This document shows positions 31,753 to 51,737 of a DNA stretch of 64,000 nucleotides, piece by piece. Position numbers and translations under genes: made by a program. Every line of letters starts with the position of its first letter. The first letter of the stretch is position 1. A model generated the notes under the pieces. The model had not been told where the DNA came from and did no database searches. It saw only the letters and a list, made by a program, of their open reading frames with translations. This stretch comes from an uncultured Candidatus Binatia bacterium (GTDB taxonomy: Bacteria > Desulfobacterota > Binatia > UBA9968 > JAJDTQ01). The DNA is taken from positions 3,488,001-3,552,000 of the forward strand of contig OZ251459.1 in NCBI GenBank assembly GCA_965242525.1, written 5' to 3'.

Positions 31753-31780
31753 GGTGTATCCGTGCCCGACTGAAAAAAAG

Positions 31781-32161: not shown

Positions 32162-32171
32162 AACCGGCCCC

Positions 32172-32244: not shown

Positions 32245-32299
32245 TCTGTATCCCTTCCAGCCTCCGCAGCCATCGCCGGCCCTGACCTTGGGCGCCGCT

Positions 32300-32397: not shown

Positions 32398-32420
32398 CTG
32401 TATCACGATGGTTCTCTGTC

Positions 32421-32547
32421 AAGGAGACTCTAAACAATCGGGCAAGGGGCATGAGCGCGTCCTTCGACTCCGCTTCGCTACGCTCAGGACGAACGGGGTC
32501 AGGAGGAGGAAATTCATCCTCCTGTCTCGATTGTTCAGACGTTCCTT
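32421..32547 (+). mobile_element. MITE family A, full copy (subtype 2)
   Basis: Ends AAGGAGACTCTAAACAATC and GATTGTTCAGACGTTCCTT enclose the core. Confidence 0.78.
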
Positions 32548-32749
32548 CAAGAGGCTTCTTCATCCGAAGTCAATGGCCAACAGCATGGAAACCAAGGTCG
32601 TCGCCCAGGCCGACGACGACGCGAGGCGACGTCATCAACCACATCAGGGGAGGATTCGAGCGGCTCCGGGACACTATGACAAGGGTACAGACCGCGGGGC
32701 GCCCTCCCCGAGGGGATCGGACCGCGTAGAGGAGAGATCCAGCGAAGAG

Positions 32750-32799
32750 CCCCGTTCGTCCTGAGCGTAGCGAAGCAAAGTCGAAGGATGCGCTTTCCC
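32750..32799 (-). repeat. Family A core without terminal repeats
   Basis: CCCCGTTCGTCCTGAGCGTAGCGAAGCAAAGTCGAAGGATGCGCTTTCCC. Confidence 0.8.
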
Positions 32800-32896
32800 G
32801 TAATCGCCTTTGCCGCACCGGCACGGACTGCTACAAGAGACCGCGGAACAGGCCGTGCGGAGAGGCTGCGGCCAGGGACCGGAAAGGAGACGCGAC

Positions 32897-33271
32897 ATGG
32901 GGGACGACGCGCGCAAGGCGTTCGAGGAGGTTTCGCTGGGGGCCGCGAACAGGGCCTACGACATCATCGCCGACCTGGACCCCGAATACGCCAGGCATCT
33001 CGCGGGGTTGTTCGTGGACGGGACCTTCGGACGCGAAGGCGCCCTCGACCGGAAGACCAAGGAGTTGATCATGGTCGGCATCACCTGCGCGCTGAACCGC
33101 GCGCGGGGCGTCCGGCTCCACAGCGAGCGCGCCCTCGAGCTGGGGGCCACGCCCCGGCAAGTCCTGGAAGCGGTGGAAGTGGCGGCCATACCCGGCGGCA
33201 TGCCGGGGCTGTGGCTCGGGGCCGAGACCCTGGAGGAGATCCTGCGCGAGAAGGGCATCGAGTTCGAATGA
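32897..33271 (+). CDS. Carboxymuconolactone decarboxylase/AhpD family protein
   Basis: LDRKTKELIMVGI, H.ERALELGAT..QVLE, GGMP; RBS AAGGAG. Confidence 0.88.
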   Translation: MGDDARKAFEEVSLGAANRAYDIIADLDPEYARHLAGLFVDGTFGREGALDRKTKELIMVGITCALNRARGVRLHSERALELGATPRQVLEAVEVAAIPGGMPGLWLGAETLEEILREKGIEFE

Positions 33272-34470
33272 TCCCGGCCAACGGCCCGCTGCACGGGGTC
33301 CGGGTGCTGGACCTGTCGAGGGTCCTGGCCGGACCCTACTGCACCATGTTCCTGGGGGACCTGGGCGCCGACGTGGTGAAGGTCGAGCACCCGGGCGCCG
33401 GGGACGACACCCGAAGCTGGGGGCCGCCGTTCCAGGGGGGCGAGAGCGCCTACTTCCTGTGCGTCAACCGCAACAAGCGGAGCGTCACCCTGGACCTCAA
33501 GACCCCGGACGGCATGGAGTTGCTGCGCCGGCTGGCCCTGGAAGCGGACGTGCTGATGGAGAACTTCCGGCCCGGCACGCTGGCGGGCTGGGGACTGTCC
33601 GAAGCGGAGGTCCGGCGGCGGAACCCGCGGCTCATCTACGCGGCGCTCTCGGCCTTCGGCGCCAGCGGACCCATGAAGGACCGTCCCGGCTACGACTTGG
33701 CGGTCCAGGCCTGGGGCGGCTTGATGAGCGTCACCGGCCCGGCCGACGGCGAGCCCTCCAAGGTGGGCGTGGCCATCATCGACGTGGTGGCCGGCCTCAT
33801 GCTGGGCAAGTCCATTGCCGCGGCCCTCTACGCCAGGGAACGGACCGGCCGGGGACAACGCATCGAGACCTCCCTCATGGAGGCGGAGGTGGCGAGCCTC
33901 GTCAACGCCGGGAGCAACTACCTGGTCACCGGCGAGGCGCCCGGCCGCTGGGGCAACGCCCATCCCAACATCGTGCCCTACCAGAGCTTCGCCACCGCGG
34001 ACGGCCATCTCGTGGTGGCGGTGGCCAACGAGGCCATCTGGACGCGGTTCTGTCGGGGGGTGGGCAAGCCCGAACTGGCCGCGGACCCCCGGTTCGACAC
34101 CAACGCGCACAGGGTGGAGAACCGGGACGCGCTCCTCGCCGTCCTCGACGGCATGTTCCGAACGCGCCTCCAGCGGGAGTGGGTGGAGTTGCTGAACCGC
34201 ATCGGAGTCCCCTGCTCCCCGGTGCAGGACATCCGCCAGGTGTTCGATTCCCCCCAGGTGCGGGAAAGGGAGATGCTCCGGGAGATCGACCATCCCACCG
34301 CGGGCAAGGTGCGCATGGCGGGGCTGCCGGTGAAGTTCTCCGAGACTCCGGCCGCCATCCGGCTCCCGCCGCCGCTGCTGGGGGAGCACAACGACCGCGT
34401 GCTGAAGGACTGGCTCGGTCTGGACGACGCCGACGTGGCGGAGTTGCGCAGCAGGGGAGCGCTGGGCTAG
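33268..34470 (+). CDS. Family III CoA-transferase (CaiB/BaiF/Frc-like)
   Basis: GVRVLDLSRVLAGP, NRNKRS, ENFRPG, catalytic Asp in IIDVVAG, PPLLGEH; ATGA overlap with the upstream gene. Confidence 0.93.
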   Translation: MIPANGPLHGVRVLDLSRVLAGPYCTMFLGDLGADVVKVEHPGAGDDTRSWGPPFQGGESAYFLCVNRNKRSVTLDLKTPDGMELLRRLALEADVLMENFRPGTLAGWGLSEAEVRRRNPRLIYAALSAFGASGPMKDRPGYDLAVQAWGGLMSVTGPADGEPSKVGVAIIDVVAGLMLGKSIAAALYARERTGRGQRIETSLMEAEVASLVNAGSNYLVTGEAPGRWGNAHPNIVPYQSFATADGHLVVAVANEAIWTRFCRGVGKPELAADPRFDTNAHRVENRDALLAVLDGMFRTRLQREWVELLNRIGVPCSPVQDIRQVFDSPQVREREMLREIDHPTAGKVRMAGLPVKFSETPAAIRLPPPLLGEHNDRVLKDWLGLDDADVAELRSRGALG

Positions 34471-34490
34471 CAGCGAGAGCCCGTCCGATC

Positions 34491-34648
34491 AAGGGAACGC
34501 CTGGTAATTCCGATTCGAACTCCCCCTCCCTGTGGAAAAGCGCGTCCTTCGACTTCGCTTCGCTACGCTCAGGACGAACGGGGAGAGACCCGGGGGGGCG
34601 GACTGATCTACGTCCTGCGGCGCGCTACGCTCAGGACGAACGAGGAGA
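34491..34648 (+). mobile_element. MITE family A copy plus a partial second core (34623-34648)
   Basis: End AAGGGAACGCCTGGTAATTCC, core 34535-34586, repeat of CGCTACGCTCAGGACGAACG. Confidence 0.75.
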
Positions 34649-34848
34649 GACCTCTGCATAAAGCGGAGCAGACCGGCATGGATGGCGAATTCAATGCATC
34701 GAAGCCCCACGCCCTCCACCAAATCTTCCATCAACCCCATTTCTATCCAAAACTCCCGAAATCCCACTTCAGGAACCTCTGAACTCGAGGTGTCCAGGAT
34801 GGATCCCCTCACCTTCCGATTTCTCGCTATCCACGAACTGGATAAAAA

Positions 34849-34969
34849 CCTGAACAATCGAGGTATCCAAAGTGGATTCCCTCACCCTGACCCTATCTCC
34901 GTTCGTCCTGAGCGTAGCGAAGTCGAAGGACGCGCTCATGGCCCTGCCCTGATTGATCAGAGGTTCCTT
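34849..34969 (-). mobile_element. MITE family A copy (subtype 2)
   Basis: CCTGAACAATCG ... core ... GATTGATCAGAGGTTCCTT; reverse-complement match to 32421-32547. Confidence 0.75.
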
Positions 34970-35040
34970 TAAGCAGAGGTCTCGGTGATAATGGTCCAGG
35001 GTTTCCCGGTCGGGAATCCAGCGCGGCGAGGAGGGACGCA

Positions 35041-35499
35041 ATGCGGCATGGCATGACCTGCGAGGAGTTTCGCCCGGGCGACGTCCACCGGACCGCCCGG
35101 CGCACCGTCACGGAGACCGACGTGGTCCAGTTCGTCAACCTGGCCGGCCTCACGGAGCCCCTGTTCATGGACGCCGAGTACATGCGGGACGAGACCGAGT
35201 ACGGCGAGCGCATCGCTCCCGGAAGCCTGACCTTCGCCCTGGCAGAGGGACTGACCACCCAGACCGGGATGCTGCACGGCACGGGCCTGGCTTTCGTCGG
35301 ACTCGCGGGCATGCGCCTGTACCGGCCGGTGAAGGTCGGGGACACCGTAAGCGTCGAGATCGAGGTACGGGACGTCCGGCCCACGCGCTCCCGCAACGCG
35401 GGCATCGTCCGCTGCCGGCAGGTGGTGAAGAACCAGCGAGGGGAGACGGTGATGGACTACACGGTGGACCGCCTGATCCGAGGCAAGCCCCCCTCGTGA
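35041..35499 (+). CDS. MaoC/PaaZ-like hotdog-fold dehydratase
   Basis: RRTVTETDVVQF, PLFMDAEY, YGERIAPG, PVKVGDTV, NQRGETV. Confidence 0.9.
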   Translation: MRHGMTCEEFRPGDVHRTARRTVTETDVVQFVNLAGLTEPLFMDAEYMRDETEYGERIAPGSLTFALAEGLTTQTGMLHGTGLAFVGLAGMRLYRPVKVGDTVSVEIEVRDVRPTRSRNAGIVRCRQVVKNQRGETVMDYTVDRLIRGKPPS

Positions 35500-35591: not shown

Positions 35592-36644
35592 TCATTTGGG
35601 GGTCCGGCGGTCGCCGGCCGGAGCCTCGGGGAAGAGCACTTTCCGGAGCTTCACCGCGAACGCCGGACTCATCTCGAACAAGCCCTTGACGCGCCTGGCG
35701 ATCTCGGCGCCAGGCACCGGCCGGACGTCCAGCCCCTGCTTGCGGGCCTCGGCGAGGAACGCCGGGTCCGCCGCGGTGTCGGCAAACGCCTTGCGGAGGA
35801 CCGCCGCGGTCTCGTCCGGCGTCCCGGGCGGAAGCGAATAGGCGCGCGCGATGGTGGCGGGATCGTGCACGCCGTGGACCATGAGGAGGCGGGCGTCCTC
35901 GGACTCGGCCAAGTCCGGGGCGTTGGGGACCGACGGCAGGTCCGGATGAGGCTCGGTCATGGCCTGGAGCACCACTCTGGCGTCTCCCGCGGCCAGCATC
36001 TTCCGCCACGCCTCCTCCATGGCCCGCCAGTATCCGCAACCGCCCTCCACTTCCCGACTCTGCGCGGCCAGACGCACCTTCACCGGCCCCCCGTACCCGT
36101 CGATGAGCTTGACGGGCAGACCCAGGGCCGCGGCGAAGACCCGCGCCATGTTGGCGGCCACGTCGTTCCGGCCGACGCCTCCCAGCTTGACGGGCCGCTC
36201 GGCGCCGGCCCAAGCCGCCAAGTCCGCGGCGCCGCTCGCCCGGGTCAGGACGCAGACGGGGTGCAGGGGGGCCAACGCCCCCACCCAGGCGAACCGCCGG
36301 GTGTCGAACTGGACTTCCCGGCTGCCGAATACCTGGTCGAGGACGAGGGCGCCGGGCCAGTGGCCGACGGTCCGTCCGTCGGGCCTGGCGTTGCGGTAGA
36401 TGTGCTCGGCCGCCACCGAGCCGCCGCCGCCGGCCATGTTCTCCACCGCCACGCGGGGCCGGTCCGGCAGATGGCGGCCCATGTGCGCCGCAAGCGTGCG
36501 TGTGTATCTGTCGAAGACGCTCTGGGCGCCGGCCCCCACCACGAACGTCAGGGGGGGCGGCTGGGCGGAAGCGTGGGCGCCGAAGACCGGCGGGAAGGCC
36601 AGCAGCAAGGCTGCGACGAGAATACCGGGGGAGAGGATCGCCAC
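35592..36644 (-). CDS. TctC/Bug family substrate-binding protein (divergent)
   Basis: FDRYTRTLAAHMGRHLP, VENMAGGGG, ARPDG, YSLPPGTP. Confidence 0.85.
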   Translation of the reverse strand: MAILSPGILVAALLLAFPPVFGAHASAQPPPLTFVVGAGAQSVFDRYTRTLAAHMGRHLPDRPRVAVENMAGGGGSVAAEHIYRNARPDGRTVGHWPGALVLDQVFGSREVQFDTRRFAWVGALAPLHPVCVLTRASGAADLAAWAGAERPVKLGGVGRNDVAANMARVFAAALGLPVKLIDGYGGPVKVRLAAQSREVEGGCGYWRAMEEAWRKMLAAGDARVVLQAMTEPHPDLPSVPNAPDLAESEDARLLMVHGVHDPATIARAYSLPPGTPDETAAVLRKAFADTAADPAFLAEARKQGLDVRPVPGAEIARRVKGLFEMSPAFAVKLRKVLFPEAPAGDRRTPK

Positions 36645-36696
36645 CGCCGTCCACCTCTCGGCGGGATCCCGTGGGCCGGGGCCCGCGGGCGTCCGC

Positions 36697-37839
36697 TCAG
36701 GCGCCGTTCAATTGCGGCATGACCTCCTTGTGGAACCGGTCCAGGGAATCGATCACCTTGTCGTGGGCCAGGTTGCCGATGTGGAACATGCCCATGAAGT
36801 GCTCGGCGCCGATCTGGCTCATCTGCCGGTTGACCTGCCGCGCCACGGTGTCGGGGCTGCCGGCGATGACGAACCCCGTCTCCAGGAGCTGCTCCCAGCT
36901 CATGGGATGGAAGTTGACGCGCTCCTGGTTGCCTTCGCGGAAGTAGTTGAAGGACTTGGCGCTGACCATGGCCTCCTTCACCTTCCGCTGGTCCATGGCG
37001 ACGTCCGTCTTGGCCTCGTTGAAGCCCCGGTTCCACAGCGTGAAGAAGTACCGGAGCGGCGGCTCCGCAACCGCGCGTGCCTGTTCGTCGGTCTCGCCCA
37101 CGTAGATGTGGCGGCAGAGGACGAACTTGTCGGGGCCGCTCTCCCACCCCTGTTCCCCGGCCATGCGGCGGTAGTAGCCGAAGGTGTCCTCGATCTGGTC
37201 CGTGGTCTGATAGACCTGGGCGATGGGGATCTTGCGCTGGACGCACCATTCGATGGACTCGGCGCTGCGCGCCGCCACCCAGACGGGCGGGTGCGGCTGC
37301 TGCATGGGCCTGGGCCAGATGGCGCAGTTCTCGAACTGGAAGAACTCGCCCCGGTAGCTCCATACCGGCTCGGTCCAGGCCGTCATGATGACGTCGAACG
37401 CCTCGCCGAACCGCCCCCGGGACTCCTGGGGCTTGACGTTGTACCACAGGTATTCCGACGGGATGCCGCGGACGAACCCCGCGATCAACCGTCCCTGGGA
37501 CAGGCAGTCGAGCATGGCGTATTCCTCGGCCACGCGCACCGGGTGCTGCCGCAGCGGCAGGATGTTGCCGAGGACGCCGATCTTGATGCGTCGGGTCTTC
37601 TGGCTCAGGGCCGCGGCGATGAGGTTGGGCGAAGGCATGGTGCCGTAGGCGCTGTAGTGGTGCTCGTTGAAGACCACGCCCTCAAACCCCAACTCCTCGC
37701 AATAGGCCATTTCCTCCAGGTGCTCCCGGTAGTTGCGCGAGCCCACCGGCGGATCGAAGTAGGTGCTCGGAACCGGCGTGCCCGGGACGTCCTCGGGAAC
37801 TTCCGGGTACGCCAGCAGGTCGAAGTTATAGACTTTCAT
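36697..37839 (-). CDS. LLM-class (luciferase-like) flavin-dependent oxidoreductase
   Basis: EELGFEGVVFNEHH, HPVRVAEEYAMLD, GRLIAGF, PRPMQQPHPP. Confidence 0.93.
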   Translation of the reverse strand: MKVYNFDLLAYPEVPEDVPGTPVPSTYFDPPVGSRNYREHLEEMAYCEELGFEGVVFNEHHYSAYGTMPSPNLIAAALSQKTRRIKIGVLGNILPLRQHPVRVAEEYAMLDCLSQGRLIAGFVRGIPSEYLWYNVKPQESRGRFGEAFDVIMTAWTEPVWSYRGEFFQFENCAIWPRPMQQPHPPVWVAARSAESIEWCVQRKIPIAQVYQTTDQIEDTFGYYRRMAGEQGWESGPDKFVLCRHIYVGETDEQARAVAEPPLRYFFTLWNRGFNEAKTDVAMDQRKVKEAMVSAKSFNYFREGNQERVNFHPMSWEQLLETGFVIAGSPDTVARQVNRQMSQIGAEHFMGMFHIGNLAHDKVIDSLDRFHKEVMPQLNGA

Positions 37840-38014
37840 GAGGGTGCTTCTCCTTTGCGGGCCGCCTTCCCGCGGGCGCGGGCCGGCCGCGTCTCCGTCC
37901 TGGGAGTCCTGACACGGGAGACTAGTCCCATCCCCCGGCCACTGTCAATCGACGGCGCCCCCGGGGACCCGCCGAAGCGGGCGGAAGGTCCCGGACCGCC
38001 GGGCCGGCCGCGGG

Positions 38015-40014
38015 TCATCCCGTCAGCATCCCCGTGAGCACGCCCGGCGGGAACGGAAGGCTCAACGAATGGACGAAGACCGCGTAGAAGCCCGCCCAAC
38101 CGAACAACGCCAGCAGGACGCTGGTGAGCCATCTCTCCCCGGCGCCCGCCTTGAGGAAGAGGAAGGTGCAGAGCGGGACCGTGACGGAGAAGCCGAGCAG
38201 CCAGATGGAGGCGAAGAAGCCGAGGATCCAGCCCACGATGGCCGCGGTCCGCCTGACGGTCCGGGTTTCGACGGGCCCGGGCGCTCCCCCGCGCCGGAAG
38301 AACCCCGCCACGTCGAGCCCCGACTGGGCAAGCGCCAGGACCAGCCCCGGGAACCCGATGGCCCAGGGGAAGAGGCTCGCCCGGAAGCCCCAGTCCCGGG
38401 ACTGCCACACGCCCCAGGCGAACCCCGCCACGATGAGCAGGGAGAAGGCCATGTGCCAGACGGTGAGGGGCGCCGCGGCCTCCGCGGTCGGCTTCGCGGC
38501 CTCCGGGTCTCCCGCGGGCCCTCGCCCGGCGTCCCGCCGACGCTGGTAGAGGGGGTAGAGTATGCCCGCCAGGATATGGCGCCGATGACCAGCACCCCCG
38601 GAAAGCCCAGCCACGCCCAGCCGTAGTTGTCGGTGGCCAGGAACAGGTTCTTCTCCGCCAGGGAACCGAGCACGAGACCCAGCAGGAGCGGCGGGCGCGG
38701 CCAGTCGAGCTGCACCATGACCCACCCCAGTAGCCCGAAGGCCAGCACCACGATGAGGTCCTCGAACGCGTTGTTCTGGGCGAAGCCCCCCAGGTAGATG
38801 AGCACCAGCAGGAAGGGGATGACCAGGCTGCCGCGGACCTCGGTGATGCGCGCCAGTTGCTTGAGGAAGACGAAGCAGACGGAGACCGTGATGACGTTGG
38901 AGACCACGACGATCCACACGAACGAGAACGTCAGGTCCAGGTGGCCGCCCTGGCTTGCGGGCAGGAGCATCGGGGGTCCGGGGACCAGGCCCTGGATGAT
39001 GAAGGCCCCGAGGAGGATGGCCATGGTGACGCTGCCGGGCACGCCGAACGCGATGGTGGGCACCAGCGCGCCCCCCAGGTTGGAGTTGTTGGCTGCGCCC
39101 GGCCCCAGCACCCCTTCCACCGCCCCCTTGCCGAAGCGGTCCTTGTCGGGCGAGGTCTGGACCGCGTGGGCGTACGCCACCCACTGGGAGACGGCGCCGC
39201 CCATGCCCGGGATGATCCCGATGTAGGTGCCGATGGCGCTGCAACGCAGCACCAGGGCCCAGTGGCGGAAGGTGTCCTTGACCCCCTCCATGACGCCGCC
39301 CAGCTTCTCCACCTTCTCTTCGGCGATGCTGGACCCCTTGACCGACAACTCGATGACCTCGGGGATGGCGAACAGCCCCAGGGTGACGGGCACCAGCTTG
39401 ATGCCGTCCCAGAGGTAGAGGTTGTCGAAGGTGAACCGTTCGATGCCCGATATGGGGTCGAGTCCCACGGTGGCGAGCATGAGGCCCAGGGCCGCGGCGG
39501 TGAGGCCCCGGACCACGGCTCCGCCGCTGAGGGAGGCCAGGAACGTGACCCCCAGCAGCGCGAGCATGAAGAACTCCGGCGACCCGATGGCGAGCACCAG
39601 GGGACGGACCACGGGAATGGCCAGGGCCAGCGCGAAGGCGCCGAAGACGGCGCCCACCAGCGAGCTCATGAGAGAGGCCCCCAGGGCGCGCCCGGCCTCG
39701 CCCTTCTTGGCCATGGGGTGTCCGTCCACGATGGTGGACGCGGTAATGGCTTCGCCCGGGATGCCGAAGAGTATGGAGGTGATGTCCCCGGTGGTGGCGG
39801 TGACCGCGGACATGCCCAGCAGGAAGGCGAAGGCCTCCACCGCCTCCATCTTGAAGATGAACGGCAGCATCAGCGCCAGCGTGACCGGTCCGCCGAGGCC
39901 GGGCAGGATGCCCACGGCGAAGCCGATCACGATGCCCAGGAGCATCAGCGTGAAGGTCGTCGCAGTGAAGACTTGTGCCAGGCCTCCCGCAAAGGCCTGA
40001 AGCATTTCACCCAT
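38015..40014 (-). pseudogene. tctA: TctA-TctB fusion permease interrupted by a 1-nt frameshift near 38575
   Basis: The TctA frame reads ...FPGVLVIGAI and the hydrophobic continuation ILAGILYPLY...SLFPW...LPFPPG lies in another frame; the span is 2000 nt, one short of 667 codons. Confidence 0.8.
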
Positions 40015-40082
40015 GATGATGGATTTCTCCCGGGCGCACGCTCATGTGCGCCCGGGAGACGGTTGCCTCGTCCGAGGCGTGG

Positions 40083-41114
40083 TTACTTCTTGGGCAGGAG
40101 GATGTCCTTCAACAGGGCCACCGTGGCGGCGTCCATGTCGTAGAGACCCTTCATCTTCCCGGCGACCCAGTTGCCGTCTTGCGGGTTCAACTCCAGTTTC
40201 GACTTCTTGGCGTCGGCGATCAGCGCAGGGTCGCTGAAGGTGGCCATGAACGCCTTCTGGAGGGTCTTCACCCGGTCCGCGGGCACTCCCGGCGGCAGGC
40301 TGTAGGGCCGCGAGATGGCGCGGTAGACGTCGTTGGCCACTCCCAGCAGCGTCTTGCCCCTCTCCCCCTTGGCCAGCTTGCCCGCCAACGCCACGTCGGG
40401 CAGGTCCGGGTGGGGCTCCGGGGTCACCTGGAGTACGGGCTTGACGTTGCCGCTCTCGATGCCCTGCCTCCAGGTCGGCTTGATGGACTGCCATGCCCAG
40501 CAGCCGCCGTCGATCTCGCCCCGTTCGGCCGCCACCCGGATCAGCGCGGTGCCGCCGTATCCCTCGATGATCTGCATGGGCAGGTCGGTGGCGGCCTTGA
40601 CCAGCTTGGGCACGTCGTCCGTGGTGGAGCCCGGGCCGGTGGCGCCGATCTTGATGGGGCGCTTGGACTTGAGCCAGTCCTCGATGCTGTTGATGCCGCT
40701 GGCCTTGGTCAGCGCGCAGGTGTTGTCGTCGGTGACCGGGGCCCCGAGCCAGTTGAACTTGCGTCCGTCGAACTTGGCGCCCTTGCTGCCCAGCACCTGC
40801 TGGAGCACCAGCGGTCCGATCCAGTTGCCGACGGTAAGGCCGTCGGGCTTGGCCTTGTTGTAGATGTAGTTGGCGGCGATCAGGCTGCCGGCCCCGGTCA
40901 TGTTCTGGACCAGGGTCTTGGGATTGCCGGGCACGTGCTTGCCCATGTGGCGGGCGATGAGCCGGGTGTAGGTGTCGAAGCCGCCGCCCGGGGAGAACCC
41001 GACCACGAACCGGATGGTCTTGCCCTCGAAGAAGTCCGCTCCCACGGAGAGGGAGGGGAGCAGCGCCAGGACGAGCCCGGACAACATGACGGCGCGGAGA
41101 AAACGACTGACCAT
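40083..41114 (-). CDS. tctC: TctC/Bug family substrate-binding protein
   Basis: FFEGKTIRFVVGFSPGGGFD, VQNMTGAGS, KPDGLT; RBS AGGAGG. Confidence 0.92.
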   Translation of the reverse strand: MVSRFLRAVMLSGLVLALLPSLSVGADFFEGKTIRFVVGFSPGGGFDTYTRLIARHMGKHVPGNPKTLVQNMTGAGSLIAANYIYNKAKPDGLTVGNWIGPLVLQQVLGSKGAKFDGRKFNWLGAPVTDDNTCALTKASGINSIEDWLKSKRPIKIGATGPGSTTDDVPKLVKAATDLPMQIIEGYGGTALIRVAAERGEIDGGCWAWQSIKPTWRQGIESGNVKPVLQVTPEPHPDLPDVALAGKLAKGERGKTLLGVANDVYRAISRPYSLPPGVPADRVKTLQKAFMATFSDPALIADAKKSKLELNPQDGNWVAGKMKGLYDMDAATVALLKDILLPKK

Positions 41115-41218
41115 AAGGAGCCTCCTGTGTCGATGGTGGGACACGACGATGGTTATCGAGTTTCCCTTTCTGTCACAAATCCGGGGCAAAGGAAAGGACC
41201 GAAAATGTTTCGCAGGGG

Positions 41219-41263
41219 TTGCGCTTGGCGAAAAAGGTCTTAAACTTAGCGAACGATCGTTTG
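41219..41263 (+). promoter_or_regulatory. Putative promoter and palindromic operator upstream of the boxB-like gene
   Basis: TTGCGC-16-TAAACT followed by the near-palindrome CGAACGATCGTTTG (41250-41263). Confidence 0.5.
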
Positions 41264-41289
41264 AAAAATCCATGCAAGGAGACGCGGGA

Positions 41290-42390
41290 ATGAACAGGAT
41301 CGCCACTTTCGACGACTGGACCGACTGCTTCAGGGAATGGCAGAAGGACATCGGGTACGACGCGGACCTGCTGGGGGACTACAGGTTCGAGACCAAGCTC
41401 GGGGACCTCCACAGCGAGGAGGTGGAGTTCGGCGACTACCGGGGCGGACGCAAGTGGGAGCGCGCAGGCCAGATACCCAACCAGGCCGTCCGGGACGCGC
41501 TGCTCACGCTCATCGTCTATCAGGGCGACACCGAGTTCGCCTCGGTGGAGCAGCAGAAGAACCTCCTGGACAACGCCCCCACCGAGTACGACCGGCAGGC
41601 GCTGATCCGCGTCAACAGCGACGAGATGAGGCACGGCTGGCAGATGTGCTACCTGCTGGTGAACTACTTCGGCGACACCGGCAAGCTGGAGGCGCGGAAA
41701 CTGCTGGAGCGCAGGGCCAACGAACAGCAACGCCTCCTGGGGTCGTTCAACCAGCCGGTCCACAACTGGCTGGACTTCTTCACCTACACCCAGTTCGTGG
41801 ACCGGGACGGCAAGTTCCAGCTCACCATGCTCAGCCACTCGGCTTTCGCGCCCCTGGCCCGCAGCGTCTCGGCCATGCTGAAGGAGGAGTTCTTCCACAT
41901 GTTCACCGGGAACACCGGGCTCACGCGCATCGTGAGGGCGAACCGGATCCCCGTGCCCATCATCCAGAAGTACTTCAACAAGTGGCTGTCCACCGCCTAC
42001 GACCTCTTCGGCACCGACCGCTCCTCGTCGGCCCAGTGGGCCTACGTGTGGGGTTTGAAAGGCCGCTTCGACGAGGCCGCGGCCGGGCAGCCCGCGGACC
42101 GGGAGAGGCTCAACGAGACGGCCCGCGCCCACTACCTGGACGAATGCCGGGGACTCGTGGACAACCTCAACCGCTTCGTCCCCGAAGGGGAGCCCCGGCT
42201 CCGGATCCCGGACGTGAAGTTCAACCGCTCCATCGGCGACCACGCCGGCATGACCTACGGCGTCGATGGCGATTTGCTCTCCGACACGGAATATGAGAAA
42301 CATCTTTCCGAGGCGCTCCCCGGGGCAGAGGACGAACGTGTCCTGGACGAGGTCTTCCGGGAGAAGGACTGGGTGCTTCAGATGAACTAG
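41290..42390 (+). CDS. boxB: BoxB-like diiron aryl-CoA epoxidase subunit (short form, 366 aa)
   Basis: QGDTEFASVEQQ, DEMRH, RLLGSFN, DRDGKFQL, EEFFHMF and FNRSIG match BoxB signature segments and diiron ligands. Confidence 0.8.
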   Translation: MNRIATFDDWTDCFREWQKDIGYDADLLGDYRFETKLGDLHSEEVEFGDYRGGRKWERAGQIPNQAVRDALLTLIVYQGDTEFASVEQQKNLLDNAPTEYDRQALIRVNSDEMRHGWQMCYLLVNYFGDTGKLEARKLLERRANEQQRLLGSFNQPVHNWLDFFTYTQFVDRDGKFQLTMLSHSAFAPLARSVSAMLKEEFFHMFTGNTGLTRIVRANRIPVPIIQKYFNKWLSTAYDLFGTDRSSSAQWAYVWGLKGRFDEAAAGQPADRERLNETARAHYLDECRGLVDNLNRFVPEGEPRLRIPDVKFNRSIGDHAGMTYGVDGDLLSDTEYEKHLSEALPGAEDERVLDEVFREKDWVLQMN

Positions 42391-42505
42391 CGTTTCCCCG
42401 CCGCATCCGCCGGGCCGGCGCCGCGGCCCCGGTCGAACGTGTCCCAGGAGCACGCATGGCAGGACGGGCGGCGGGCGCTCCCCGGCCATGCGCAAGGAGA
42501 ACCCG

Positions 42506-42829
42506 GTGAAACGATTCTGCCTCGTCTGCCAGAACGTGGACTGCAAGAGTCGAGGCTCCGAAGAGCTGATGCGCGACTTGCGGCAACGGGCGGCGGACAA
42601 GGGCCTGGACGACGTGGAAGTGCGTTCCTACATGTGCTTCGGGGCGTGCCAGGAAGGCCCCAACATGGTCCTCTACCCCGACAAGTTCTGGTACGCCAGC
42701 GTGAAGCGGGAGGACCTGGACGACATCGTGGCGCACTTGGCCGGCGGCCCGCCCGTGGACCGGCTGGACAAGATCGACCCTTCCCTCAAGGAGCTCATCT
42801 ACCAGTTGCTGGACACCGGGGTCTTTTAG
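42506..42829 (+). CDS. Thioredoxin-like [2Fe-2S] ferredoxin (NuoE/HydC-type domain)
   Basis: C-x4-C (CQNVDC) and C-x3-C (CFGAC) followed by EGPNM..YP...WY; RBS AAGGAG before GTG. Confidence 0.88.
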   Translation: MKRFCLVCQNVDCKSRGSEELMRDLRQRAADKGLDDVEVRSYMCFGACQEGPNMVLYPDKFWYASVKREDLDDIVAHLAGGPPVDRLDKIDPSLKELIYQLLDTGVF

Positions 42830-42834
42830 CCGTC

Positions 42835-44070
42835 ATGGAAGGCATCCTGTTCCCGCGAGGCGTGGCCGAGGGACTCGAAGGCCTCGACGCCTATCGTTCC
42901 AGGGACGGCTACCGGGCCCTGGAGCGCAGCCTGCGCGAGCTTTCCCCCCAGGCGGTGATCGCGGAGTTGGAGCGGTCCGGCCTGCGCGGCAGGGGAGGCG
43001 CCGGGTTCCCCACCGCCCGGAAACTCGCCCTGACCCTGGAAAGCCCGGAAACGCCCCGCTACGTGGTGATGAACGGCGGCGAGGACGAACCCGGAAGCCG
43101 CAAGGACCGGGTGCTCATGGAGAACGTCCCCCACCTCGTCCTGGAGGGGGTGGTCCTGGCGGCCTACGCGGTGCAGGCGGAGAAAGCCTACCTCTACATC
43201 AACCGCGGCTACGAAGCGGCCGCGCGCGCCATGGCGACGGCCATGGACGAAGCCAGGGAAGCGGGTTACTGGGGCGAGGACGTCCTGGGTTCCGGTTTCG
43301 GCCTGGAGATCGTGACCGTGGCCGCGCCTTCCAACTACGTGGCGGGGGAGGACACCGCGGCCCTGGAGGTCATCGAGGGGAAGGACCCGCTGCCGCGGCG
43401 GAAGCCGCCCTTCCCCGTCACCGCCGGACTGTTCGGCAAGCCCAGCCTGGTCAACAACGTGGAGACCCTGGCCAACGTCGCGCCGATCCTCGCCCGGGGG
43501 CCGGAATGGTACCGCTCCTTCGGGGCCGGGGAGAGCCCCGGCACCATGCTCTTCTCCCTGGGGGACGAGATGGAAAGGCCGGGCGTCTATGAGCTGCCTT
43601 TCGGGACCCCCTTGCGCTACCTGCTGGAGGAATGCGGCGGCGGGCTGAAAGAGGGCAAGCGCGTCAAGGCCGTCCTTCCGGGCGGGCCGTCGTCGGGGTT
43701 CCTGCGGCCCGAAAACCTCGACGTGCCGCTGGACCACGCCTCCCTGCGCGACGCGGGATCGTCCATCGGATGCGGCGTGGTCAAGGTCCTTGCCGAAGGG
43801 GATTCCGTGCTGGACGAGGTGGCGCGCATCGCGGACTTCTTCGCCCGGGAGTCCTGCGGCCAATGCCCGGCCTGCCGCATGGAGACCAACATGCTGGCGG
43901 CGCTGCTCAGGAAGGTGCAGCAGGGACAGGGCAACGACGCCCTGGTGGAGCAGTTCGGCAAGGTGCTGGAGTTCAACCGGGGGAAGGGGTTCTGCAGCCT
44001 CATCCACATGCCGGGTCCGCCCATCGAGAGCGCGGTCCGGCTGTTCCCCGAAGAGTTCCGCGGCGCGTGA
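42835..44070 (+). CDS. Stand-alone NuoF-like FMN/[4Fe-4S] NAD(P)H oxidoreductase
   Basis: GLRGRGGAGFP, EPGS.KDR, YVAGEDTA, PRRKPPFP, NNVET and ESCGQCPACR...FC; no other nuo genes nearby. Confidence 0.9.
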   Translation: MEGILFPRGVAEGLEGLDAYRSRDGYRALERSLRELSPQAVIAELERSGLRGRGGAGFPTARKLALTLESPETPRYVVMNGGEDEPGSRKDRVLMENVPHLVLEGVVLAAYAVQAEKAYLYINRGYEAAARAMATAMDEAREAGYWGEDVLGSGFGLEIVTVAAPSNYVAGEDTAALEVIEGKDPLPRRKPPFPVTAGLFGKPSLVNNVETLANVAPILARGPEWYRSFGAGESPGTMLFSLGDEMERPGVYELPFGTPLRYLLEECGGGLKEGKRVKAVLPGGPSSGFLRPENLDVPLDHASLRDAGSSIGCGVVKVLAEGDSVLDEVARIADFFARESCGQCPACRMETNMLAALLRKVQQGQGNDALVEQFGKVLEFNRGKGFCSLIHMPGPPIESAVRLFPEEFRGA

Positions 44071-44085
44071 CCGCGGCGGCCCGCT

Positions 44086-44271
44086 TCAGAGGTCGAGGCT
44101 CTTTCGCGGCAGGTTGAAGACCACGCCTTCGCCGTTCCGCACCAGGCAGGTGTCGTTGCTCCACTCCTTGATGACCTCCACCTCGTCTCCCGGCGAGAAC
44201 GACGCGTCCTCGACCCCGGCGTTCTTGGTGGACTGGTACTTGAAGGTAAACGCTTCCTTGACGGTGGCCAT
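44086..44271 (-). CDS. Small hypothetical protein (61 aa), SH3-like pattern
   Basis: RBS GGAGG; sequence SFSPGDEVEVIKEW...LVRNGEGVVFNLP...L; GC3-rich codons. Confidence 0.65.
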   Translation of the reverse strand: MATVKEAFTFKYQSTKNAGVEDASFSPGDEVEVIKEWSNDTCLVRNGEGVVFNLPRKSLDL

Positions 44272-44309
44272 CCGAGGCCCCTCCCTTCTCCGTGGACCGC
44301 GCGCCGCGT

Positions 44310-45002
44310 TCAGGCCCTGTCCGGGCTTCGCCAGCTCCCGCGGCGGCCGGGGAGCCGCAACGCCCTCTCCAGGCCCTTCAGGAAAGCCGCGCGGGGGACC
44401 TCCCTGGCGCCGAGGCGCAGCATGTGGGAAGTTGTAACCTGCGCATCGATGAAATGGAAGCCCCAGCCCGAGAGCCGGTGGACGAGACCCGCCAACGCCG
44501 CCTTGGAGGCGTCGGTCTCCCTGTGGAACATGGACTCGCCGAAGAACCCCCCGCCGAGGGCCACGCCATAGACCCCGCCCACGAGCTCCGAGCCGATCCA
44601 GGTCTCCACCGAATGGGCCACTCCGGCGTCGTGGAGACGCACGTAGGCCCTCTCCATCTCCCGGGTGATCCACGTGCCGCCCTGACCGCGCCGCGGGACC
44701 GACGCGCAAGCGCGGATCACGCCCCGGAAGTCCTCGTCGAAGGTGACCCGGAACCGCCCCCGGTTCAGGACCCGCCGCAGGCGCCGGGAGACGTGGAACT
44801 CGCGCAGGTCGAGGACGCACCGGGGGTCCGGCGACCACCACAGGATCGGCTGGCCCTCGCCGTACCAGGGAAAGATACCCATCGAGTACGCCAGCACGAG
44901 GCGCGCGGTCCCCAGGTCGCCTCCCACCGCCAGGAGCCCGTTGGTCTCGGCCTCCTCCGGCGAGGGAAAGGCCAGTTCCCGGTTCAGGCGATAGACGGGC
45001 AT
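44310..45002 (-). CDS. aat: Leucyl/phenylalanyl-tRNA--protein transferase
   Basis: GLLAVGGDL, AYSMGIFPW, WWSPDPR, AHSVE, FFGESMF, DASK. Confidence 0.96.
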   Translation of the reverse strand: MPVYRLNRELAFPSPEEAETNGLLAVGGDLGTARLVLAYSMGIFPWYGEGQPILWWSPDPRCVLDLREFHVSRRLRRVLNRGRFRVTFDEDFRGVIRACASVPRRGQGGTWITREMERAYVRLHDAGVAHSVETWIGSELVGGVYGVALGGGFFGESMFHRETDASKAALAGLVHRLSGWGFHFIDAQVTTSHMLRLGAREVPRAAFLKGLERALRLPGRRGSWRSPDRA

Positions 45003-47307: not shown

Positions 47308-47553
47308 TCACTTCTGGGTCCAGTAGATGTTGCGGTCGAACTCCGGGTCCAGCCGCATGAGGTAGAGCGCCAACATGCCGTGGGCGCCCAAGGGCCGCAG
47401 CCGCTTGGGGTCGCCGCTCTTGATGGCCGCCACCTCCTCGGCGTCCAGGTCATACCCGGACAACGCCTCTTCCAGGTCGGTCCTGGCCCGGCCCAGGGCG
47501 TCGGGGTCCATCTTCAAGTCGAACAGGAACCGGTTGAGTTGGTAGCGGCTCAT
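47308..47553 (-). CDS. LigA-like small subunit of an extradiol dioxygenase
   Basis: Y.LN.FL..L, YDLDAEE..AI..GD...L..LGAH; adjacent to the LigB-type gene. Confidence 0.78.
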   Translation of the reverse strand: MSRYQLNRFLFDLKMDPDALGRARTDLEEALSGYDLDAEEVAAIKSGDPKRLRPLGAHGMLALYLMRLDPEFDRNIYWTQK

Positions 47554-47595
47554 CGGTGCTCCCCAATGCCTGCGCTGTGGTCCCTGCTTAGCGGA

Positions 47596-48459
47596 TCAGA
47601 TCCGCCAACTGGCGAAGCCCCACCCGGTGGCCACGTGGTCGGGCATGTAGAAGGTCTCCGACGCCGGGGCGTCGCTCACCGCGCCCACCGTGACCATCCA
47701 GTTGAGGAACTCGGAGTTCCCGGACTGCCGCAACTGTTCCAGCGTCAAACCGGCCAGGGCGGGGCCCTCCCCGGCGCGCATCCGCCGGAGCAGGTCTTCG
47801 TCGAAACTCGTGTCGATCTCGCCGATGCGGGGGGATCCCGGGAAGTGCGACAGCCCGCCGGTGGCGAGCATGGCCACCCGGACCGAAGCGTCGTCCGCCA
47901 CCTGCCGGATCAGGCGCCCCAGGGCGTAGCACCGGGCGGGGGTGGGCAGCGGTTCGATCCACGTGTTCACGAATATGGGCAGGATGGGGATCTCCGGTTC
48001 GGGCAGGAGGAAATGCAGCGGCACGGTCTGGGTGTGCTGCAACTCCACGTCCTCGCCGAAGGACAGGTCCAGTCCCGCGGCGACCCCCGCCTCGAGGATG
48101 GCGCGGCCGAGCTCCGGGTGGTTCCGGTAGTGGAACTCGTGCCGGGTGAAGCGGCCCCGGACCTCGTCCGCCAGCGTCACGAAGAAGGTGGGGATATTGT
48201 CGAAGAAGAAGTTGACGAACTGGTCGTTGGCCACGACGATGAGCACGTCGGGCTTGGCCGCCTGGAGGTCGGAGCGAAGCACCGAAAAAGCGTTTTCCGC
48301 GTCCCGCCGCAGCTTCTGCTGCGCCTCCAGGGAAGGCTTGGCTCCGGCCGCCTCGGGCGCCATGCGGTAGTGCAGGCTCATGAACTCTTCCCACTCGGGA
48401 CCCGGGTCCAGGAGGATGTTGGGCGCATGGCTCGCGGCCAACGCAGAGACGAACGGCAT
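47596..48459 (-). CDS. LigB-type (class III) extradiol ring-cleavage dioxygenase
   Basis: ASHAP, KPDVLIVVANDQ, ATGGLSH, GNSEFLNW. Confidence 0.88.
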   Translation of the reverse strand: MPFVSALAASHAPNILLDPGPEWEEFMSLHYRMAPEAAGAKPSLEAQQKLRRDAENAFSVLRSDLQAAKPDVLIVVANDQFVNFFFDNIPTFFVTLADEVRGRFTRHEFHYRNHPELGRAILEAGVAAGLDLSFGEDVELQHTQTVPLHFLLPEPEIPILPIFVNTWIEPLPTPARCYALGRLIRQVADDASVRVAMLATGGLSHFPGSPRIGEIDTSFDEDLLRRMRAGEGPALAGLTLEQLRQSGNSEFLNWMVTVGAVSDAPASETFYMPDHVATGWGFASWRI

Positions 48460-48574
48460 TCGCAATCCTTTCCGGAGCGTGCAGAAAACGACGCTAGATG
48501 GTATAATCCGATCCGGGAAATTTCAACCGGCTCCGCCGCAGGGCCGCGGGGACGGAGACAACGGGGACGCTTCC

Positions 48575-50903: not shown

Positions 50904-51626
50904 TCACAGGTCCACCACCATCCCGTCCTCCGCGGTGGCTACGGGCAGGGAGCCGCGCCGGGCCAGCATCTCCTCTCCCATGTGGGTCAGGATCAACCGC
51001 TTGCATTCCAGGCGGTCCCGGTGCGCCGCGATCTGTGCGTAGCTCATGTGCGACGACGAAGGGGCGTCGTAGTGGCAACATTCGCAGATGAACAGGTCCG
51101 CGCCCCGGCTGTGGTCGATGAACCGGTCCGTCCAGCTCGAATCGCCGGAGAACAGCACGGTGCGGCCCGCCGCCGTCACCCGGAGCCCGAGAGAAACCGC
51201 GTCGGTCTGGTGCGGGACCCGGAAGGCCAGCACCTCGGCCCCCGCCACCGTGGCCGCGGCGTCCGGGCGCAGCACCGGAAAGGCCGCGAACGGCAGGTCC
51301 TTCTCTCCGTACATGAGCTTCATGAGGCCGCGCACGCGCTGCTCGGTCCCCGGGGGACCGGCTATGGGAAGGGGGCGGCTGCGGCGCCGTTCGTAGAGGA
51401 AATGGATGAAGAGGAAGGGCAGGCCGCCGAAATGGTCGCCGTGCAGGTGGCTCAGGAACACCGCGTCCAGGTCCGCGGGGTCCAGCCCGGCGCGCTTGAG
51501 GGCGGCCAGGGTGGATGAGCCGCAGTCGAGCAGGTACAGCCCCGTCCGGTCCTCCAGCAGGTACGCGGTCTGGTTCCTGCCGCCGCTGCCGAAGGCGTCT
51601 CCGGTGCCCAGGAAGTGGACTCTCAC
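50904..51626 (-). CDS. MBL-fold metallo-hydrolase (RNase Z-like)
   Basis: FLGTGDAFGSGGR, LLDCG, SHLHGDHFGG, FSGDS, LILTHM; start uncertain. Confidence 0.88.
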   Translation of the reverse strand: MRVHFLGTGDAFGSGGRNQTAYLLEDRTGLYLLDCGSSTLAALKRAGLDPADLDAVFLSHLHGDHFGGLPFLFIHFLYERRRSRPLPIAGPPGTEQRVRGLMKLMYGEKDLPFAAFPVLRPDAAATVAGAEVLAFRVPHQTDAVSLGLRVTAAGRTVLFSGDSSWTDRFIDHSRGADLFICECCHYDAPSSSHMSYAQIAAHRDRLECKRLILTHMGEEMLARRGSLPVATAEDGMVVDL

Positions 51627-51737
51627 GGGGCCGAGACTAGCAGCACCCCCCGGACCTTGGCAACGCGCGCCCGGTCTGACAGATTCATGGGGCCGGACGG
51701 AACCCTGCAACGCCGGCACCGAACCCGCGGCTTTTCC

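Follow-up and report, generated by a model that had tools for sequence, protein, structure and literature searches.

A BoxB-like diiron protein encoded with a thioredoxin-like ferredoxin and a stand-alone NuoF-like flavoprotein: a putative three-component acyl-CoA oxygenase

To our knowledge, the bacterial multicomponent diiron oxygenases (BoxAB, PaaABCDE, and the soluble methane and toluene monooxygenases) take their electrons from FNR-type or related reductases. BoxA is an FNR-type reductase with FAD and 4Fe-4S clusters, and PaaE, annotated as a reductase subunit, belongs to the FNR type and carries a plant-type 2Fe-2S cluster. NuoF-type flavoproteins occur in very different company, in the NuoF/NuoE (Nqo1/Nqo2), HydB/HydC, HoxF and FdsB modules. 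Few functions are known for the class of thioredoxin-like ferredoxins, free single-domain proteins of about 110 residues such as Aquifex aeolicus Fd4 (1F37/1M2A) and the Clostridium and Azotobacter types (NF041612/NF041613). Here we describe a locus in an uncultured Candidatus Binatia bacterium where a BoxB-like protein is encoded together with members of the latter two families. Full-text literature searches turned up neither an oxygenase described as having a NuoF-type reductase nor any account of the trio, in agreement with the initial annotation, which knew of no oxygenase with this architecture.

The window, the whole stretch of 64,000 nucleotides analysed, carries the trio on the plus strand at 41290-44070. 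ORFs and family scans agree with the annotation on three co-oriented genes: a short BoxB-like diiron oxygenase, here called type 1 (41290-42390, 366 residues, identified by PF05138, TIGR03225 and fold), a thioredoxin-like [2Fe-2S] ferredoxin (42506-42829, PF01257) and a stand-alone NuoF-like flavoprotein (42835-44070, 411 residues), which starts 5 nt past the ferredoxin stop, as had been noted. An AAGGAG lies 8 nt ahead of the BoxB-like ATG. The ferredoxin ORF can be read as 113 residues from ATG 42488 (42488-42829), but the GTG at 42506, giving 107 residues, is the likelier start because the orthologues L023 and L027 have a stop upstream of it and an AAGGAG lies 8 nt ahead of it. Between the BoxB-like and ferredoxin genes the plus strand has no terminator-like site and there is no structured RNA (z-score 0.58), and no match to the sigma-70 consensus was found within 40900-44400.

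The diiron protein resembles BoxB in its ligands, its pocket and its fold, and is far from PaaA. All four diiron motifs claimed for it are present in the form described, DTE at 80-82, EMRH at 112-115, DRD at 171-173 and EFFH at 200-203. It matches PF05138 with 55 bits and BoxB (3PER) with E 3e-55, and in the HMMER alignment the six BoxB iron ligands listed in PMC5489048, E120, E150, H153, D211, E240 and H243, fall on E82, E112, H115, D171, E200 and H203. These ligands are invariant in 43 aligned homologues. The AF2 model (pLDDT 92.8) has the ferritin-like diiron fold of BoxB from Azoarcus/Aromatoleum evansii (3PER, 3PF7, 3PM5, 3Q1G), with a Foldseek match to 3PM5_A at E 1.5e-24, TMq 0.90, TMt 0.70 and rmsd 2.1. 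The phenylacetyl-CoA 1,2-epoxidase PaaABC(D)E of E. coli (3PW8, 4IIT) shares PF05138 and is also a diiron acyl-CoA ring epoxidase with a separate reductase. However, the protein is nearer BoxB than PaaA in sequence, tree and structure: it scores 47.8 bits against the PaaA profile TIGR02156 (cut-off 280), PaaA structures reach a TMq of only about 0.54, and in the phylogeny against BoxB and PaaA that the annotation had called for it falls on the BoxB side, with PaaA a far outgroup. A Pfam scan of the adjacent ORFs found no genes for PaaB, PaaC or PaaD.

It is not a typical BoxB. At about 39% identity overall to canonical BoxB representatives, the protein is about 105 residues shorter, and in the HMMER alignment lacks about 45 N-terminal residues, two internal segments (about 15 and 25) and about 40 C-terminal residues. 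It scores 238.3 bits against TIGR03225, below the equivalog cut-off of 499.1, its best stretch covering profile positions 68-323 of 471. Of the seven benzoyl-positioning residues listed in PMC5489048, five (Q116, T119, S123, F193 and F203) are kept; the two exceptions are F206, replaced by Y, and T210, replaced by V. Across the 43 rows of the alignment, mostly short forms, conservation of Y166 is 90% or more.

These departures bear on the reaction. The pair may reduce the diiron protein while the chemistry is something other than benzoyl-CoA 2,3-epoxidation, such as hydroxylation, desaturation or epoxide deoxygenation, or while the substrate is a substituted aryl-CoA or an alicyclic acyl-CoA. 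The score below the BoxB cut-off and the two pocket changes are in keeping with this, as are the absence from the genome of a BoxC to take an epoxide onward, the non-catabolic neighbours of the trio, and the number and deep diversification of short forms, to which 5326 of the 8000 candidate proteins scored belong at E<=1e-10. We nevertheless think it somewhat unlikely, as Q116, T119, S123, F193 and F203, which position the ring in BoxB, are all retained, the protein keeps about 39% identity to canonical BoxB and matches its fold with a TM of 0.90, and the genome encodes a member of the benzoate-CoA ligase family (597 bits against a cut-off of 375). Close homologues of this ligase are found in 40 of 41 genomes (39 of 40 relatives and this one), with or without a type 1 gene, so that phylogenetic profiling with it was uninformative, and the neighbours of the ligase gene gave generic matches only.

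The two partner proteins belong to the families that the annotation called NuoE/NuoF-type, though this description needs qualifying. The small protein is a thioredoxin-like [2Fe-2S] ferredoxin (PF01257, 32.2 bits against a cut-off of 24.8) but not a NuoE orthologue: it scores 31.7 bits against the NuoE profile TIGR01958 (cut-off 142.4), matching positions 63-147 of 148, so that the resemblance is confined to the C-terminal thioredoxin-like part and the N-terminal domain of NuoE is missing. Its four cysteines, invariant in 28 orthologues, are spaced C-x4-C...C-x3-C, as in the aligned N-terminal domain of HydB. NuoE has the same spacing. The closest solved relatives are that HydB domain (7Q4V_B, 7.7e-13) and Aquifex Fd4 (1F37, 8e-13). 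Like the free thioredoxin-like ferredoxins it has one domain and a similar length, with a match to NF041612 at E 1.8e-11, but it lies below both NCBIfam cut-offs (44.5 against 150 and 36.1 against 195). Fd4 has a wider spacing of the first two cysteines, which here are 4 residues apart.

From end to end the NuoF-like protein consists of the FMN, SLBB and N3 [4Fe-4S] domains found in NuoF (Nqo1), HydB, HoxF and FdsB (PF01512, 139 bits, with PF10531 and PF10589). The FMN loop GLRGRGGAGFP lies at 49-59, the nucleotide motif GGEDEPG at 81-87 and the N3-type cluster cysteines at 341, 344, 347 and 387. It aligns over its full length to NuoF structures (E. coli NuoF, 7P64_F, 3e-97), and its 404.3 bits against TIGR01959 fall below the cut-off of 558.65. 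A complete nuo operon, which includes a nuoE and a nuoF, lies elsewhere in the genome (C1:~144000-156000), so the NuoF-like gene, 43% identical to the complex I NuoF, is an extra copy and is ruled out as a complex I subunit. Unlike the known modules, the pair stands alone, outside any nuo, hydrogenase or formate dehydrogenase cluster; as the annotation had claimed, no other subunits of these enzymes occur among the 30 window ORFs scanned with Pfam. Unlike HydB, the flavoprotein has no N- or C-terminal ferredoxin domains, and unlike modules of the NuoF and HydB type, its linked partner is a diiron protein that would activate O2. A split, minimal HydB-type diaphorase is a closer parallel for the pair than NuoE/NuoF.

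Where BoxB has BoxA and BoxC as partners, this genome has neither, and has the ferredoxin and NuoF-like pair instead. No boxA, boxB or boxC, and no match to TIGR03224 or TIGR03222, was found above cut-off in the genome, which rules out a canonical Box pathway encoded elsewhere in it. The window was free of boxA and boxC, as claimed, the genome-wide matches to boxA, boxC and NuoF paralogues all lying outside it. The check for boxA in related genomes, which the annotation had suggested, found none in 41 genomes (this one and 40 relatives) at E<=1e-10.

On balance, and with modest confidence, we favour the reading that the trio is a diiron oxygenase of three components that depends on NAD(P)H and O2 and acts on an aromatic (benzoyl-like) acyl-CoA, in which the ferredoxin and NuoF-like pair takes the place of BoxA and, in this genus, probably serves at least one further acceptor. 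In the scheme that we infer, for activities, direction of electron flow, nucleotide and substrate alike, NAD(P)H would deliver a hydride to the FMN of the NuoF-like protein, whose [4Fe-4S] cluster would pass single electrons to the ferredoxin. The ferredoxin would dock on the short BoxB-like protein and reduce the diiron centre, which would then activate O2, and the ring of the CoA thioester would be epoxidised or otherwise oxygenated.

The docking step received weak support from complex prediction, another check that had been suggested. The BoxB-like protein and the ferredoxin gave a median ipSAE of 0.56 (runs 0.60, 0.56 and 0.21) against 0.00 for the best of three controls, with a partner pLDDT of at least 85 and the runs agreeing in at least 83% of contacts. 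According to the benchmark stated for the prediction tool, 58 of 80 solved complexes and 2 of 110 mismatched pairs attain this mark, but those scoring 0.60 or less comprised just 7 of the 80 solved complexes together with both mismatches.

The three genes are conserved as a unit across phyla. Searching with the BoxB-like protein gave 80 genome loci, of which 30, at 70% identity or more, were classed as type 1 and 50, about 60% identical, as type 2. At 28 of these type 1 loci the BoxB-like gene is followed immediately by the ferredoxin gene and then by the NuoF-like gene, as here; the remaining two loci stop at a contig edge. The type 1 records bear the labels Binatia, Verrucomicrobiota, Eisenbacteria, Limnocylindrales and 'delta' MAGs. 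The reciprocal search with the NuoF-like protein gave 80 metagenome loci, 66 of them informative once 14 uninformative ones had been set aside. A BoxB-like gene is present at 64 of the 66, full-length beside the ferredoxin in 53 and running off the contig beside the ferredoxin in 11; the remaining two have only a remnant and belong to the deletion group described below. The linkage thus holds in both directions, a point that the annotation had proposed checking, and this conserved set of genomic partners suggests a defined role for the ferredoxin.

The type 1 BoxB-like proteins are 70-89% identical (27 aligned rows of the 30 loci). Such high conservation across phyla, and the housekeeping-like neighbourhood in many lineages, could also be expected if the trio were a detoxification system of the NADH oxidase or peroxidase type, in which a ferritin-like diiron protein reduces O2 or H2O2 and has no organic substrate. 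We regard this as very improbable. Fold and pocket match BoxB, an acyl-CoA oxygenase, rather than rubrerythrin or ferritin, the best Foldseek matches outside BoxB and PaaA having a TMq of 0.45 or less; substrate-positioning residues are conserved; and type 2 relatives are found in acyl-CoA catabolic operons.

Within the genus, however, the pair can outlive its neighbour. Ten of the 11 same-genus genomes without a type 1 BoxB-like gene keep the NuoF-like orthologue. In all eight of those ten that were examined the locus is syntenic; the BoxB-like gene has lost about 1 kb there, and the ferredoxin and NuoF-like genes are intact. In well-supported deletion subclades dN/dS is 0.10-0.15 for the NuoF-like gene and 0.03-0.19 for the ferredoxin (dS 0.16-0.40), matching the values from genomes with an intact BoxB-like gene. 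As the pair stays intact and under purifying selection after the deletion, it appears to have a function that does not need that oxygenase, and is probably not dedicated to the adjacent oxygenase alone. The deletion loci fall into four subclades on a basal polytomy of the NuoF-like DNA tree; the best tree needs three changes, but the well-supported branches allow one, a single ancestral deletion. The idea of the initial annotation, that a diaphorase module was recruited as electron donor, is partly supported, by the conserved trio and the lack of boxA, but not as an exclusive arrangement.

The survival of the pair raises the question of its other client. A second short BoxB paralogue, type 1b, lies about 150 kb from the trio. 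The type 1b clade is sister to type 1 (SH-aLRT 95), and a type 1b/type 2 paralogue is kept in all 41 genomes searched. The pair might then be a general soluble NADH:ferredoxin diaphorase with its main client elsewhere, type 1b being a candidate, and the adjacent BoxB-like protein a dispensable client or a co-regulated neighbour. Purifying selection on the pair after deletion of the BoxB-like gene in cis fits this, as do the position and retention of type 1b, and there are traces of the partners within its clade: a decayed ferredoxin/NuoF pair in L046, and in the L048 genome, an independent lineage, a ferredoxin gene adjoining the BoxB-like gene and a 51%-identical NuoF-like gene inside a cluster for an ALDH, an enoyl-CoA hydratase and a 3-hydroxyacyl-CoA dehydrogenase. 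The L048 arrangement speaks equally for the preferred oxygenase reading. We consider a general diaphorase with its main client elsewhere unlikely, because outside one genus the NuoF-like gene practically never occurs without the type 1 BoxB-like gene, the two exceptions among the 66 informative loci being in the deletion group. Type 1b also has a conserved convergent neighbour of its own, a 4Fe-4S and CCG-domain protein. The search for an orthologous pair elsewhere in genomes of the type 1b clade had a mixed outcome across those checked. Two of them speak against such a client: beside type 1b the L046 genome retains no more than a decayed NuoF-like gene, and in the L055 genome there is no NuoF-like gene.

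Type 2 proteins differ from type 1 in their company. At 48 of the 50 type 2 loci there is no neighbouring ferredoxin/NuoF-like pair, and no NuoF-like orthologue was found genome-wide in any of five type 2 genomes tested, the best matches being 34-43% identical. Borrowing of an orthologous pair encoded elsewhere is thus ruled out in those five genomes. As type 2 relatives in other phyla lack such a pair, the BoxB-like family can apparently be reduced in other ways.

The conserved neighbours of the trio are not catabolic, which counts against the preferred reading: they are a PtsP-like protein, a radical-SAM enzyme, a Leu/Phe-tRNA protein transferase and solute-binding proteins. In the window a divergent group of Tct-type and luciferase-like genes, defined by Pfam and synteny, occupies 35592..41120 on the minus strand: a TctC-like binding protein (40083-41120), TctA with TctB (38015-40014), a luciferase-like monooxygenase (36697-37839) and a second TctC-like protein (35592-36644). 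The divergent Tct transporter operon that had been annotated holds for TctA (415 bits), but both 'TctC' genes are only weakly TctC-like, one scoring 23.7 bits, short of the cut-off of 27, and the second having no Pfam match. Synteny of this context is limited to the genus (L016-L022, L103-L110), and it lies outside the conserved trio; other lineages have the PtsP-like and radical-SAM genes upstream in its place.

The divergent TctC-like and BoxB-like genes are separated by 169 bp of intergenic DNA, within which lies a conserved 31-nt stretch (41166..41197, no strand assigned), a candidate promoter or operator. When intergenic regions were compared with the window by blastn it recurred in four of ten deletion loci (L103, L104, L106 and L107) at 87-94% identity, retained there despite the adjoining deletion of about 1 kb.

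The new point to emerge is that the ferredoxin and NuoF-like pair outlives deletion of the BoxB-like gene in part of the genus while under purifying selection, and this natural 'deletion experiment' offers a handle on which partners depend on which. If our preferred reading of the trio as an oxygenase is right, a diiron oxygenase would here be powered in a different way, by a NuoF-type FMN/[4Fe-4S] protein and a thioredoxin-like ferredoxin. As read from the genes, this arrangement recurs in several bacterial phyla, and it would give the thioredoxin-like ferredoxin class a role.

A broader possibility, which we put forward only tentatively, is that the pair is a minimal diaphorase of the complex-I/hydrogenase type that acts as a free-standing, portable reductase for O2-activating diiron acyl-CoA oxygenases, serving more than one of them in trans, and that short BoxB proteins mark a widespread, BoxA- and BoxC-independent aerobic aromatic-CoA route in uncultured soil and sponge bacteria. 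The pair would then survive loss of the neighbouring BoxB-like gene because other oxygenases are served in trans. It would represent a reductase class for bacterial multicomponent oxygenases of which our literature searches found no description, and the first case of a thioredoxin-like ferredoxin whose physiological role is to carry electrons to an oxygenase. As the short BoxB family is very large and common in records labelled Binatia, Acidobacteriota, Gemmatimonadota and Verrucomicrobiota, this chemistry may bear on the degradation of aromatic acids by uncultured soil- and sponge-associated bacteria.

The three genes lie on the forward strand and, as translated, encode a BoxB-like diiron protein of 366 residues (P0001, 41290-42390), a [2Fe-2S] ferredoxin of 113 residues as called (P0002, 42488-42829) and a NuoF-like flavoprotein of 411 residues (P0003, 42835-44070), with 5 nt between the P0002 stop and the P0003 start. 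In searches with family profiles P0001 matched PF05138 (PaaA_PaaC) and scored 238 bits against the BoxB equivalog TIGR03225, well below the 499-bit cut-off, and only 48 bits against the PaaA model. P0002 passed the threshold for PF01257, the family of thioredoxin-like [2Fe-2S] proteins. P0003 contains the full run of three NuoF domains, can be aligned to NuoF structures along its whole length and scores 404 bits against the NuoF profile (cut-off 558.65). Its FMN loop and nucleotide motif are both retained, along with the four cysteines of cluster N3. The reading frames, family matches and motifs all confirm the three-gene observation of the initial annotation and the diiron ligand motifs it quoted. 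Its description of the second and third genes as a NuoE/NuoF-type module holds for the NuoF part only, as the NuoE models match P0002 weakly and just in their C-terminal half. Among solved structures P0002 comes closest to the free Aquifex ferredoxin Fd4 and to the N-terminal domain of HydB, a hydrogenase subunit, and the term split, minimal HydB-like diaphorase fits the pair better than NuoE/NuoF does. Because orthologues carry stop codons upstream, the sequences indicate that P0002 probably starts at the GTG at 42506, giving a protein of 107 residues.

P0001 resembles BoxB in fold, iron ligands and most of the pocket residues. Its AlphaFold model (pLDDT 92.8) superposes on benzoyl-CoA-bound BoxB with a TMq of 0.90 and an rmsd of 2.1 Å, compared with about 0.54 for PaaA, and it is 39% identical to two canonical BoxB representatives. 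We read a HMMER alignment of P0001 and BoxB against the residues listed in PMC5489048, where the benzoyl-positioning residues include Q116, T119, S123, F193 and F203. All five are retained, as are six of six iron ligands, while F206 is replaced by Y and T210 by V. The iron ligands are invariant across 43 aligned homologues, the two canonical representatives included. P0001 differs from BoxB in being about 105 residues shorter; going by the alignment coordinates, the shortfall is spread over both termini and two internal stretches.

The linkage of the three genes is widely conserved. From at least 591 relatives of P0001 in GTDB genomes we kept 80 loci, of which 30 encode a protein at least 70% identical to P0001 (type 1). 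The ferredoxin and NuoF-like genes follow directly downstream, in the same order, at 28 of these 30, and the remaining two end at a contig edge. Their records are labelled Binatia, Verrucomicrobiia/Udaeobacter, Eisenbacteria, Limnocylindrales and various ‘delta’ MAGs. The other 50 loci (type 2), mainly from Acidobacteriota and Gemmatimonadota, encode proteins 57-63% identical to P0001, and at 48 of them the ferredoxin and NuoF-like neighbours are absent; of the two that differ, L048 has a ferredoxin and L046 a ferredoxin and a decayed NuoF. Seeding with P0003 gave the reciprocal picture: among 80 metagenome loci kept, 53 have the ferredoxin and a full BoxB-like gene, 11 the ferredoxin and a BoxB-like gene cut by the contig end and two a BoxB-like remnant only, with 14 having too little upstream sequence for a call. 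The gene order reported in the initial annotation is thus a conserved one.

For a quick phylogeny by maximum likelihood, with SH-aLRT as its only support measure, we used 35 rows: 10 of 31 type 1 proteins (the 30 loci plus the window’s own), 12 of 51 type 2 proteins, seven other short representatives, three canonical BoxB, E. coli PaaA and PaaC, and the third paralogue of the window’s genome. Type 1 proteins form one clade (SH-aLRT 95), and a clade of Binatia paralogues, type 1b, is its sister (SH-aLRT 95). The canonical BoxB proteins branch separately, on a long stem inside an unresolved radiation of short forms, with PaaA and PaaC far outside them all; in the tree the trio’s diiron protein stands closer to BoxB than to PaaA. 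One database representative, P0163 (367 residues), is a short BoxB homologue 35% identical to P0001 in which, by eye, the iron-ligand positions are replaced, with no DTE or ExxH at the aligned sites; a structural, non-catalytic paralogue of the PaaC kind is one possible reading.

The window’s genome, an assembly of 4.23 Mb that is 99% complete, has MAGs labelled Candidatus Binatia as its nearest named relatives and yielded no boxA, canonical boxB or boxC above cut-off. The boxA gene was likewise found in none of 41 related genomes at E≤1e-10, in agreement with the suggestion that another reductase stands in for BoxA. Elsewhere the genome has a full nuo operon that includes nuoE and nuoF, and a small contig carries a third NuoF-like gene, which is fused. 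P0003 is thus an extra copy; it is 43% identical to the complex I NuoF of the same genome. A benzoate-CoA ligase family gene scores above cut-off, making aromatic CoA esters plausible metabolites. Its presence profile is non-discriminating, with close homologues in 40 of the 41 genomes searched.

The best-supported reading of the trio is a three-component oxygenase. Electrons would pass from NAD(P)H to FMN and the [4Fe-4S] cluster of the NuoF-like protein, then through the [2Fe-2S] ferredoxin into the diiron site of the BoxB-like protein, where O2 would be activated and a benzoyl-like acyl-CoA oxygenated, most likely epoxidised. We infer the substrate, the fate of the product and every activity. 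A complex prediction for P0001 and the ferredoxin, each with its own alignment, gave a median ipSAE of 0.56 (runs 0.60, 0.56 and 0.21; best of three controls 0.00), with partner pLDDT of at least 85 and run-to-run contact agreement of at least 83%. In the calibration of the tool, scores of 0.60 or below came from 7 of 80 solved complexes and from both mismatched pairs that passed (2 of 110), and the model gives weak support to predicted binding of the two proteins.

A natural deletion shows that the pair is not exclusively dedicated to the adjoining oxygenase. The type 1 gene is present in 16 of 16 genomes of the same order and in 13 of 24 of the same genus. Ten of the 11 same-genus genomes missing it keep an orthologue of the NuoF-like gene, its product sharing 81-86% identity with P0003; the eleventh, where none was found, is 93% complete. 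We fetched eight of the ten loci, and all eight are syntenic with the window and lack about 1 kb, roughly 41200-42225. What remains of the BoxB-like gene is the last 30-60 codons, seen by protein search in seven and by DNA search in all eight, while the ferredoxin and NuoF-like genes are full-length and stop-free. The same state occurs on two metagenome contigs, and the NuoF-like DNA tree is compatible with one or several deletion events. Within subclades whose divergence certainly postdates the loss, the NuoF-like gene has a dN/dS of 0.10-0.15 (dS 0.19-0.40) and the ferredoxin gene one of 0.03-0.19, no different from the values in genomes that retain the BoxB-like gene or from those of aat, a neighbouring gene. 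The pair therefore keeps a function without the neighbouring oxygenase. Locus L046 is a second, independent case of uncoupling, with the reductase lost instead of the oxygenase: at 8850-9920 a decaying ferredoxin/NuoF-like pair adjoins a type-1b-like gene, the NuoF-like frame being broken and residues ~60-268 missing.

The obvious candidate client of the pair in the deletion genomes is the type 1b paralogue, found in every same-genus genome examined, deletion genomes included. The window’s genome encodes two further PF05138-family members, of which this short BoxB, 61% identical to P0001, lies about 150 kb away (contig C1, 3681817-3682905; locus L012, 7800-9005, reverse strand) with no ferredoxin or NuoF adjoining. 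Such a role is not general: in three genomes that carry type-1b-like genes, the first encodes a NuoF-like protein 51% identical, in a cluster of aldehyde dehydrogenase, enoyl-CoA hydratase and 3-hydroxyacyl-CoA dehydrogenase genes, the second has only a decayed copy and the third none. No NuoF-like orthologue was found in five type-2-only genomes of other phyla. The convergent neighbour of type 1b, a 4Fe-4S dicluster and CCG domain protein (HdrD/GlcF-like; L012, 6270-7781, forward strand), is a possible alternative redox partner, and its cluster recurs beside BoxB-like genes in L046, L048, L055 and L078 (ORF clustering, 80 loci). The other member, a distant PaaA_PaaC protein of 238 residues with the Sulfolobus protein 4MUD as its nearest match, is encoded just ahead of genes for ETF beta and alpha (contig C1, ~3839822-3842588; locus L013, 6822-9588), so that the genome’s three ferritin-like PaaA/BoxB proteins each have a different electron-transfer module.

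Beyond the trio the neighbourhood is not conserved at the loci examined. The divergent Tct-type transporter of the initial annotation is present in this genus, upstream with a luciferase-like monooxygenase; other lineages have PtsP-like and radical-SAM genes there, and downstream solute-binding proteins, hydrolases or Leu/Phe-tRNA protein transferase. No linked catabolic partner such as BoxC or BoxD was found at the trio loci. The window has aromatic-catabolism genes near the trio that are not conserved with it: a LigB-type extradiol ring-cleavage dioxygenase (47308-48465, reverse strand; PF02900, 112 bits), preceded by an 81-residue ORF that has no LigA-type Pfam match and which we take to resemble a LigA-type small subunit, with an SDR gene and a PEP-mutase/isocitrate-lyase family gene close by. 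Upstream of the Tct genes, 29205-35499 encodes two enoyl-CoA hydratases, an S24/HTH repressor-like protein, a family III CoA-transferase and a MaoC dehydratase; this setting of CoA-ester metabolism does not accompany the trio in lineages beyond the genus. Elsewhere are AddAB-like helicase-nuclease genes (PD-(D/E)XK, UvrD) with a type I HsdM-like N6 methylase gene after them (51615-60962, forward), and, apart from these, a gene for a 1033-residue DNA methylase (6741-9842, reverse). Sequence near-identical to 41150-44100 occurs in public runs from nine studies, several labelled sponge metagenome, which is a lead to habitat; no RNA run is recorded among them.

A full-text literature search, with many subscription papers and supplements outside its reach, found no published account of a NuoF-type module feeding an oxygenase, whether of the BoxB/PaaA type or another. 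New here are the linkage counts from both seeds, the deletion lineage and the test of selection in it, the finding that five type-2-only genomes lack the pair, the tree and the weak docking result. An acyl-CoA diiron oxygenase is a known kind of enzyme, and the novelty would lie in the proposed type of reductase.
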